Shown here: piece by piece, positions 43,341 to 46,330 of the stretch
Layout: each line of letters begins with the position of its first letter
Position numbering within the stretch: the first letter of the stretch is position 1
Source: Dehalococcoidia bacterium
GTDB lineage: Bacteria; Chloroflexota; Dehalococcoidia; Lucifugimonadales; UBA3495
DNA: 64,000 nucleotides
Assembly: GCA_965232845.1 (NCBI GenBank)
Contig: OZ247428.1
Span: 1,565,543-1,629,542 of the forward strand
Direction: 5' to 3'
Position numbers and translations under genes: made by a program
The notes under the pieces: generated by a model
The model's input: the letters and a program-made list of their open reading frames with translations, nothing else
Told to the model about the DNA's origin: nothing
The model's database searches: none

Positions 43341-43901
43341 CTAGACCCTCTCACCCTTAAATGCCCACAGCCAGTCCTGATCCCGGGCCGGGCCCGTAAC
43401 CCACCCGTCCATGGCCTGCTGGCGTTCCGCCCCAATGTCCACACCCAGGCCATCGGCCAGCCGGTTCATGAAATTGAACAGGCAGGTAATCCCCACCACT
43501 GAAAGTATCTGCTCATCAGGCAATCCCAGTTCCCTCAGGGTAATTACATCCGCCTCCCGCATTTCCGTCGGTTCTTTGGTCAGCTTCACCGCAAAGTCCA
43601 GCATGCCACGGGTCTGCGGGTCGAGGTCGGCAGTCGTATAGTCGTGCAGGACATGACTGGCGTATTCCGGGTCGTCGGAATGTTGACGGAGGAACCCCCC
43701 GTGGGAAGATGCTCAATAGCGGCAGCGGTTGATCACTGACACGGCTACGGCAATGGATTCCTCCTGAATCCGGGTCAGCTCCGAGGCGCCGAAACTGACG
43801 GCCTGGTTAAGGTTGCGGACCGCCTCCATCATCCTGGGGTTAATGGACATGGAGCTAATAATGCCGGGCATGCCCACGTCTTCCTGTCTTATCCAGGTCA
43901 T
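43341..43901 (-). CDS. AhpD-like / carboxymuconolactone decarboxylase (CMD) family peroxidase-related selenoprotein, CxxU motif (in-frame TGA at 43715-43713)
   Basis: ORF-track pieces 43713..43901 and 43341..43604 are in one frame; I verified this codon by codon. Readthrough gives ...IAVAVSVINRCRY-U-ASSHGGFLRQH...MLDFAVKLTKEP... The family motif is N-x-C-x-Y-C-xxx-H, so the TGA replaces the second Cys. The total of 186 codons is typical for the family. AAGGAG Shine-Dalgarno at the start. Confidence 0.8.
43686..43702 (-). promoter_or_regulatory. candidate bacterial SECIS hairpin for the AhpD-like gene
   Basis: On the coding strand, ACGGGG-GGUUC-CUCCGU forms a 6-bp stem including one G-U pair, with a GGU-containing apical loop. 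It starts 10 nt after the UGA. Confidence 0.45.
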
Positions 43902-43987: not shown

Positions 43988-44374
43988 CTATTCGCTCACC
44001 GAGGCCGGGCGCGCCCCCTCCAGGTAATGAGTATGTTCCGCAGAATAGGGATCAAGGGCAGGAAAGAACACCAGCAGGTGAGCCGTACCTTCGCCGGTAA
44101 CTCTAAAGGAGTGCTCAGCCCCGGGGGGAATGACCACGGTGTGGTTAGGGCCGACAGTCCGGGTTTCCCCATCCATGCTGACTTCCAAAGTTCCTTCCAT
44201 TATGATGATCAGCTCGTCAATAGTGTGAGTGTGCAACGGAGCGCCGGCTCCAGGCTCGGCGGTATTGATGCTAAAGGTGCTGGTTACCCCCTGTTCGTGG
44301 CCGGCCACGTCCCACTTTCGGTAGCCAGGCCGCCAGGGCACTTCCGGAGCATGGGAATGGTCAATTATGGGCAT
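43988..44374 (-). CDS. cupin-domain protein
   Basis: 128 aa with GAGAPLHTHTIDELIIIMEGTLEV...PPGAEHSF (two cupin motifs). GGAGGA Shine-Dalgarno upstream. It lies 86 nt upstream of the AhpD-like gene on the same strand. Confidence 0.8.
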   Translation of the reverse strand: MPIIDHSHAPEVPWRPGYRKWDVAGHEQGVTSTFSINTAEPGAGAPLHTHTIDELIIIMEGTLEVSMDGETRTVGPNHTVVIPPGAEHSFRVTGEGTAHLLVFFPALDPYSAEHTHYLEGARPASVSE

Positions 44375-44620
44375 GCTGTCCTCCAGGGCGTTCGGTCAGG
44401 TTGGCTGCGGGCAGCACCTGCCGGCGATTTGCGCCCCATTGTACCCCATATTCCCCTAACTGCCAGACCAGAAAAACAGGGGCCAGGAACAAGCGCGCCA
44501 CCTAAGGTGCCCCTGCCGGAACTAACTTGGCGAACACCGTTGAATATTTGATTTCACGTACGGGCGCCCGGCGGTAGCCGTGCTATACTTGGTCAATCAC
44601 CGGCATTTCAGGAGGAACTT

Positions 44621-45139
44621 ATGACCACGCCAGCGGCACAACCGGATAGTGACCGGATTTCCCGGTCTTTTACCATCCAGGGCGACGCGATGACCCTGGA
44701 AGGCATGAAAAAGCAGGCGGAAGCCCGCGGTTTCACGATTATGTGCGACGAAGGGCCCCCTATGGGCGACAACACCGCGCCTTCTCCCATGACCTATTTC
44801 GCGGTCGCCATCCTGTTTTGAGAAATGACCCAGCTTGAGCGGTACGCTCAGATGATGAAAGTGGACCTGGGGCAGGTAAAAGCTAATGTCGGCTTTTCGG
44901 TTTCTTCCGAAGGTTCGGTGCTTCGACAAACGGTTCAGGCCAAGGCGGACAAGATCAACATTCACTATGACGTAGTTTCTAATGACCCGCCGGAACGGGT
45001 GGCTGGCCTCATGCGGAACGCCCGCAACGGTTGCTACGCCCGCCAGTCCTTCGGGCGCCCTGAGTTGTTCGAAGACACTATCAACTTGAATGGCGAGCCC
45101 TTTGACATGGCTGACTACCCGGCTCCAGGCGACAACTAA
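44621..45139 (+). CDS. OsmC/Ohr-family peroxiredoxin-like selenoprotein (in-frame TGA at 44819-44821)
   Basis: ORF-track pieces 44621..44821 and 44825..45139 are in the same frame (offset 204 nt). Readthrough gives ...NTAPSPMTYFAVAILF-U-EMTQLERYA... and later RNARNGCYARQSF. The TGA aligns with the first conserved OsmC Cys (E. coli ...IGAAHAAC-FSMALS), and the second Cys motif is retained. AGGAGG Shine-Dalgarno 6 nt before the ATG. Confidence 0.8.
44835..44851 (+). promoter_or_regulatory. candidate bacterial SECIS hairpin for the OsmC-like gene
   Basis: UUGAGC-GGUAC-GCUCAG, a 5-7 bp stem with GGU in the apical loop, beginning 13-14 nt after the UGA. Confidence 0.45.
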
Positions 45140-45328
45140 CTTACGGACGCCTTCCGGACTGTATAAATCCAGGCCCAGTTATTCAACGTAGTATATACTG
45201 ACAGGGGTCGTTGGTGTTTCATCCCTCACCCCCTTGGAATGCCAGGCTCCTGTCACAATGCCAGCGGTCGAGGCTGTCAGTCAGATGGCCCACGCTGGCC
45301 CAACCGATTCCAGAGACAAATTCATGCA

Positions 45329-46330
45329 ATGGGCAAGGCAGTGGCGGACGACAGGACTACTACGGAACTCACCTCTGAAATTCCGGCGATAGTTACTCAA
45401 GGGTTAACACGGCAGTTCGGCAAAGTTACCGCCCTTAACAACGTGAGCCTGGTGGTTCCCTCTGGAACCGTCCTGGGGTTGTTGGGCCCCAACGGTTCCG
45501 GCAAAACCACCTTGCTCAGCGTCTTGGCGGGCTTTATTTCTCCGACCGCCGGCAACTTTCAACTATTGGGCCAACCCGACCACAGCCAGGCGCTGGCCCG
45601 TACGGGTTCGCTTATCTCACGTCCTCTCTTGTGGCCCCACCTGACCTGCCACGACAATTTGCGCTGCATCCAGGGGATAACCGGCCTCCAGCCTGACCTC
45701 TACGAAGTGGACCGCCTGCTGGCAGAGGTGGGCTTGGAGAGGAGCGCGGCCAATCGAAAATTCGGCCAGTGTTCCACCGGAATGAGGCAGCGCCTGGGCA
45801 TCGCCACCACCCTGCTGGGCAATCCTGACCTGCTCCTGCTGGACGAACCCACCACGGGGCTGGACCCTGAGGGCATGGTGGAAATCCGGAACCTGATTCG
45901 CGAATTGGGAAACAAGCCGGGACGCTCCATAATAATGTCCAGCCATTTGCTCCACGAAGTCGAACTTACCTGCGACCACTACGCAATAATCTTTCGAGGC
46001 AATCTGGTGGACCAGGGACCCTTAACGAGTGCAACCCTGCCTGTCTCTGCCGTTCAGGTAAACACCACGGACAATGTGCGCGCCCTCGATTGCCTCGTCA
46101 AAAAAGGCTGGAGCGCCTCCGCCAACTCAAGGGACACCGGCCAGCACCAATCCTTGATTGTGGAAACCCAGCCTGGCGCCGAATGGAAGGTGGCCCGGGA
46201 CCTGGCGGAGTTTGGCATTTATCCCTCTGACATGCGCCCCTCCGAATCGACCCGCTTTGCCGGGTCGCTGGAGGGAAAGTACCTGGTCGCCGTGGGCCGC
46301 GGGGAAGTTGAAGGTGGCCAGAAGGAATGA
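45329..46330 (+). CDS. ABC transporter ATP-binding protein (ABC-2/GldA-like exporter type, extra C-terminal domain)
   Basis: ORF track 45239..46330; ATG 45329 is preferred. Walker A is GPNGSGKTT, the signature is CSTGMRQRLG and Walker B is LLLLDEPTTGLD. Confidence 0.9.
   Translation: MGKAVADDRTTTELTSEIPAIVTQGLTRQFGKVTALNNVSLVVPSGTVLGLLGPNGSGKTTLLSVLAGFISPTAGNFQLLGQPDHSQALARTGSLISRPLLWPHLTCHDNLRCIQGITGLQPDLYEVDRLLAEVGLERSAANRKFGQCSTGMRQRLGIATTLLGNPDLLLLDEPTTGLDPEGMVEIRNLIRELGNKPGRSIIMSSHLLHEVELTCDHYAIIFRGNLVDQGPLTSATLPVSAVQVNTTDNVRALDCLVKKGWSASANSRDTGQHQSLIVETQPGAEWKVARDLAEFGIYPSDMRPSESTRFAGSLEGKYLVAVGRGEVEGGQKE

Follow-up and report, generated by a model that had tools for sequence, protein, structure and literature searches.

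A probable OsmC-like selenoprotein gene with an in-frame UGA codon in a Dehalococcoidia genome

The locus, its reading frame and its neighbours

The window, by which we mean the whole 64-kb stretch of DNA that was analysed, lies in a single-contig Dehalococcoidia genome of 3.75 Mb that is 96% complete. On its plus strand a single frame of 172 codons, closed by a TAA stop, spans positions 44621-45139, and a TGA codon at 44819-44821 is its sole interruption. A Shine-Dalgarno sequence, AGGAGG, can be read at 44610-44615, 5 nt 5′ of the ATG start (44621), and the start of the encoded protein (MTT...) is conserved across the genus. The preliminary description of this DNA had reported two ORFs in the same frame, split by a TGA and one further codon, a geometry that we reproduced exactly: an ORF of 66 aa (44621-44821) and an ORF of 104 aa (44825-45139) have their frame in common, and the TGA and one GAA codon stand between them. 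Reading through the TGA yields a protein of 172 aa, in which residues 66-71 are F-U-E-M-T-Q (in the context AILF-U-EMTQLERYA). Two further features follow on the same strand, a candidate SECIS hairpin with an apical GGUAC (44835-44851) and the codon of Cys138 (45032-45034), the partner cysteine at the resolving position, which is found in the motif NARNGC. Upstream of the second ATG (44825) there is no ribosome-binding site comparable to AGGAGG, and a scan of the plus strand for promoter and terminator consensus sequences returned nothing convincing. Judging from the comparative results given below, it is very probable that 44621-45139 is one gene, that its product is a selenoprotein of 172 residues from the OsmC superfamily (COG1765 / NF041052 branch), and that the UGA is recoded as selenocysteine (Sec). 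The locus would then be annotated as a single selenoprotein gene of 172 codons, with 44819-44821 marked as a translation exception, in place of two hypothetical ORFs.

The minus strand carries, at a distance of about 720 bp from the OsmC-like gene, a second selenoprotein gene, one of the AhpD/CMD fold (43341-43901). It has an in-frame TGA at 43713-43715, within the motif N-R-C-R-Y-U (CxxU), and this TGA is conserved in all 27 related loci where the gene occurs; against TIGR01926, "peroxidase-related enzyme", the gene product obtained 126.7 bits (cut-off 81.8). A cupin gene (43988-44374, also on the minus strand) is found between the AhpD-like and the OsmC-like genes. The arrangement in which the AhpD-like and cupin genes face the OsmC-like gene is restricted to the genus and those relatives closest to it (loci L031-L062) and is lost in more distant family members. 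When flanks of up to about 6 kb were inspected at 20 distant loci, no neighbour recurred beyond generic genes of ABC ATPases, luciferase-like monooxygenases and SDR proteins, so gene order there provides no operon-level clue to function, reductant or pathway. Operon-based functional inference was rejected, as none of the 20 distant loci pointed to a conserved partner gene.

Family membership, redox residues and possible chemistry

The joined protein matched the NCBIfam model NF041052, "OsmC-related (seleno)protein", with 144.1 bits (cut-off 95), and the same locus scored 135.4 bits in a six-frame search of the genome. Against the Pfam OsmC family (PF02566) the read-through translation obtained 48.1 bits, above the gathering score of 27.5, while the C-terminal fragment alone reached 24.1 bits, under that score, and the N-terminal fragment of 66 aa had no match in the Pfam search. 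This agrees with the statement in the preliminary description that neither fragment would be a functional OsmC domain by itself. An AlphaFold2 model built with 14 family sequences as input (pLDDT 83.8, pTM 0.74) places U67 within a long central helix (residues 56-78) and C138 between helices 124-137 and 139-143, and the top 50 matches of a Foldseek search against the PDB were all OsmC, Ohr or OsmC-like entries. Two redox residues at a spacing of roughly 60 positions are a hallmark of the Ohr/OsmC superfamily (PMC5384416); U67 and C138 are 71 residues apart, a spacing that we counted as belonging to this hallmark.

The family itself is already known. OsmC-like selenoproteins were originally described from metagenomic data of the Sargasso Sea (Zhang, Fomenko and Gladyshev 2005; PMC1088965) and are covered in later reviews (PMC9312934, PMC13188914). 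They correspond to COG1765/YhfA with the motif UxxT (PMC1088965, PMC13188914, PMC9312934), and NCBI maintains a dedicated model, NF041052. The motif is present here as U-E-M-T, residues 67-70. The statement in the preliminary description that Sec-containing OsmC-like proteins had been seen in surveys of marine metagenomes is therefore correct (PMC1088965). Its further remark that they are rare and routinely mis-annotated is right as to mis-annotation, and the family is less obscure than the remark implied, given the NCBI model. In a collection of 5.8 billion proteins the family is represented almost only by C-terminal fragments of 94-104 aa, and automated gene calls systematically cut its members short at the UGA. 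The relatives retrieved from this collection (P0002-P0082) are mostly unnamed or called "hypothetical protein", and one is mislabelled as a pentose-5-phosphate-3-epimerase. Such truncated entries distort the profiles of the family and the counts of selenoproteins in Dehalococcoidia.

To which residue of the superfamily does the UGA column correspond? [quoted passage not shown] When HMMER was used to align PDB chains with the protein and with the family profile, the U column fell on a Cys in 3cje, 2onf, 2opl, 9wo1 and 1vla, and a full-length metagenomic Cys homologue (P0083) has C-V-L-T-Q at this position. A MAFFT L-INS-i alignment that included bridging sequences and OsmC of E. coli K-12 placed U67 on Cys59 and C138 on Cys125; the mapping of U67 to Cys59 is based on this alignment together with the HMMER profile alignments to PDB chains. 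Local hhalign of the family profile with the single sequence of E. coli OsmC aligned only the region of the second Cys, to KAKAGCPVSQVL, with low probability, and the alignment obtained in forced global mode was meaningless and was set aside. C138 is invariant in the family alignment. These alignments support the assignment of the UGA column to the first conserved Cys of the superfamily, the one at the peroxidatic position, as the preliminary description had proposed on the basis of E. coli OsmC. Its second proposal, that the motif of the second Cys is intact, likewise holds, and the comparison it suggested, of the read-through translation with Pfam OsmC and Cys homologues, puts U opposite the Cys of the catalytic position.

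Besides the two cysteines, the Ohr and OsmC subfamilies both need a conserved Arg and a conserved Glu (PMC5384416), and neither was found here: the Glu of the NPE motif of OsmC is opposite M57 (Leu in relatives), and the OsmC-like selenoprotein family has a gap where E. coli OsmC has its Arg-bearing loop. The absence of these two residues places the protein in a third group of the Ohr/OsmC superfamily (COG1765), which lacks Arg and Glu, is poorly characterised, and has given conflicting peroxidase results for one member (PMC5384416). Hence the term "OsmC/Ohr-family" used in the preliminary description is accurate at the level of the superfamily, but the residues that define the two characterised subfamilies are missing. 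The family has invariant residues of its own, D43, E44, Y59, T70, Q71, R74 and Y75, four of which (T70, Q71, R74 and Y75) are on the same helix face as U67.

By analogy with the characterised members of the superfamily, the most likely course of the reaction would be a cycle of selenolate oxidation, selenenylsulfide formation and reduction by thiols. A hydroperoxide or some other oxidant would convert the selenolate of Sec67 to a selenenic acid, which would condense with Cys138 to an intramolecular selenenylsulfide, and this in turn would be reduced by a thiol donor, for example a lipoyl protein or thioredoxin. As to the substrate, the assignment as a peroxidase is weak. A recoded UGA may also serve a function other than that of a peroxidase, such as a selenenylsulfide oxidoreductase acting on disulfides of proteins or of low-molecular-weight compounds, or a protein of sulfur or selenium trafficking, and we regard this as possible, if somewhat unlikely. 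The missing Arg and Glu speak for it, as does the failure of OsmC-domain proteins with both cysteines in peroxidase assays (PMC5113044; TvOsmC, PMC5384416), and the invariant T70, Q71, R74 and Y75 near U67, together with D43 and E44, suggest a distinct active site. Yet the protein has the fold of the peroxidases, with both redox residues in the same places, and the gene that adjoins this one in the genus encodes an AhpD-like, peroxidase-related selenoprotein. Sec is strongly nucleophilic and its pKa is low, properties that could make the activation network of Arg and Glu dispensable.

Conservation of the UGA and the signal for its decoding

We examined the codon in related genomes, whose records are titled as Dehalococcoidia, Chloroflexota or SAR202 cluster MAGs. 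Among 61 genomes of the genus, family and order, all 27 matches to NF041052 above its cut-off have exactly one TGA, and so do 15 of the 16 such matches in 301 genomes sampled evenly from the phylum; with the Chloroflexota genome samples pooled, the UGA is carried by 41 of 42 matches above the cut-off. Wherever the codon was read in related loci (20 + 31), the TGA was always in one column, the surrounding motif being F/L-U-x-x-T/S, and in the 20 distant loci it occupied the identical column in the 19 loci of the Sec form. In the genus, family and order, conservation of the protein continues unbroken on both sides of the TGA.

The exception in the phylum sample, and its lone stop-free member above the cut-off, is L086 (G102:C3), which has TGC at the Sec column (codon 6307-6309, minus strand). 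Two codons before the loop it has CGC for CGG, by which the otherwise invariant G of the hairpin loop is gone (C at nt 24), and the hairpin fold of this Cys form is the weakest of the set. The genome of the window also encodes a distant paralogue of the OsmC superfamily (L023, G000:C1:1876346-1876732, minus strand), which scores 47 bits against NF041052 and has no stop. It has kept the first Cys (GSCMTVG), has Ser at the position of the second Cys, and is conserved across the genus.

The hairpin begins 13-14 nt after the UGA and has a stem of 6-7 bp, formed by nt 17/18-23 with nt 27-32/33 (counted from the U of the UGA; 44835-44851), with GGUAC at its tip. When the single sequence is folded the hairpin is present, but it is no more stable than in shuffled sequences (z = -0.43), so the SECIS assignment draws on comparative data only. 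In 30 distinct close relatives, 97.6% of the stem cells of the alignment are paired, and four of the seven pairs have changes on both sides. In 25 diverse Sec forms, 96% of the cells are paired, as against 68% in shuffled alignments and 21-56% with slid partners, and compensatory changes are seen in all six pairs; the covariation score was 0.659 (versus 0.158) and was reached by none of 500 shuffles. In these 25 sequences G24 of the loop (44842) is invariant, one of only five such bases besides the UGA. The coding sequence is constrained at the same place: calculated over 31 orthologues with identities of 70% or more, mean synonymous entropy is 0.08 for codons +5 to +9 of the stem (CTT GAG CGG TAC GCT) and 1.07 for the remaining 98 codons that are conserved and degenerate. 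The stem codons form the five-codon window of lowest synonymous entropy in the gene, a value matched or undercut in none of 100000 random draws. Bacterial SECIS elements are poorly modelled in Rfam, and a scan of 44000-46000 with Rfam models at E values up to 10 gave only chance-level matches and no SECIS model. A small apical loop that contains a conserved G serves as a criterion for bacterial SECIS elements (PMC1088965), and the hairpin seen here, directly 3′ of the UGA, has such a G. The stem with a GGU loop 13-14 nt after the UGA had already been pointed out in the preliminary description; its position was confirmed, with covariation and frozen synonymous sites added. The covariance-model check suggested there gave no match with the models of Rfam.

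If the TGA were a genuine stop, the locus would consist either of two short genes, one for 66 aa and one for 104 aa, or of a gene fragment and, after it, a C-terminal half of OsmC that is translated on its own. An ATG does follow one codon past the TGA, and public gene calls list the fragment of 94-104 aa as a protein. However, neither fragment makes up a complete OsmC domain, the Cys homologues are single full-length proteins, the second ATG is without a ribosome-binding site, and covariation marks the hairpin that follows the TGA as an RNA element. In distant Sec forms, moreover, the U is followed by L-L-T-Q with no start codon nearby, and the frame and the conservation run across the TGA, so that a two-gene architecture is not conserved; the preliminary description had named separate conservation of two genes as an outcome that would speak against read-through. 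Altogether we consider termination at this codon highly improbable. A pseudogene, or an error of assembly or sequencing at a TGC or TGT codon for Cys, is next to negligible in probability and appears effectively refuted by the comparative data, since, even though TGA is one substitution away from either codon and L086 has TGC, the same TGA is found in more than 60 independent assemblies across the genus, family, order and phylum, the flanking protein is conserved on both sides of it, and constraint at the RNA level is located exactly at the hairpin.

For recoding of the UGA as Sec the genome has the complete apparatus that the preliminary description had proposed to look for: tRNA-Sec (67.5 bits, with a UCA anticodon by ARAGORN), selA (550 bits), selB (352 bits) and selD (390 bits; L009, G000:C1:2451001-2451924, minus strand) all lie in the same genome and scored over their cut-offs. 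The selD gene carries one in-frame TGA, and its product is presumably itself a selenoprotein. An alternative code with TGA as a sense codon was rejected, because, of the 2224 stop-to-stop frames that are 300 codons or longer, 601 (27%) end in TGA; TGA is thus an ordinary stop in this genome, the code is the standard one, and recoding is site-specific. Comparative evidence supports both the genes and the putative signal for decoding of the UGA. In the mechanism that we propose, SelB with Sec-tRNA(Sec) would bind during translation to the hairpin of 6-7 bp located 13-14 nt past the UGA, the hairpin would present the conserved G(G)U at its tip to SelB, and selenocysteine insertion would replace termination at 44819-44821. 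The register of the hairpin, its invariant loop G and the loss of this G in the lone Cys form provide a good basis for a recoding assay.

Comparison with known systems

The Dehalococcoidia locus adds one more member to a known family, in a lineage that has several selenoprotein genes within one 64-kb window. In this branch without Arg and Glu, Sec may be near-obligatory (41 of 42 matches), which could mean that Cys is unable to sustain the chemistry; in the genus, the protein might further form a relay with the AhpD-like CxxU selenoprotein, whose gene is divergently transcribed. One of the two would then sense oxidants or act as a peroxidase, and its partner would serve specifically to reduce it. 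We offer this combined scheme as a speculation that is more probably wrong than right by a wide measure.

Compared with the OsmC-like selenoprotein family as modelled in NF041052 (OsmC_like_Se), the protein has the same UxxT motif, Sec at the first Cys, the second Cys kept and a SECIS with a loop G, and we see no substantive difference. Here the member comes from a SAR202-type Dehalococcoidia MAG lineage, whereas the original members came from surface-ocean reads, and in the genus of the window the gene adjoins that of an AhpD-like selenoprotein. The closest solved relative is PDB 3cje (Jann_2040 of Jannaschia sp. CCS1, from structural genomics; profile E = 3.4e-19), a Cys form in which the residues U-E-M-T-Q of the window's protein are replaced by C-V-M-T-Q and whose second Cys lies in the same G-C motif. 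With Ohr, a lipoyl-dependent peroxidase (PDB 1n2f, 4xx2), the protein encoded in the window has in common the fold and two redox residues roughly 60-70 apart, but the catalytic Arg and Glu of Ohr are not conserved here and at the level of sequence the match to Ohr is only marginal (3eer, E = 0.34). E. coli OsmC (b1482; PDB 1qwi/1nye), a thiol-dependent hydroperoxide reductase, has the same fold, and both redox positions align with it, although the identity is only about 12%; the protein encoded in the window differs from it in having Sec at the first position and Met for the Glu of NPE, and in lacking the Arg loop (FNTRFE).
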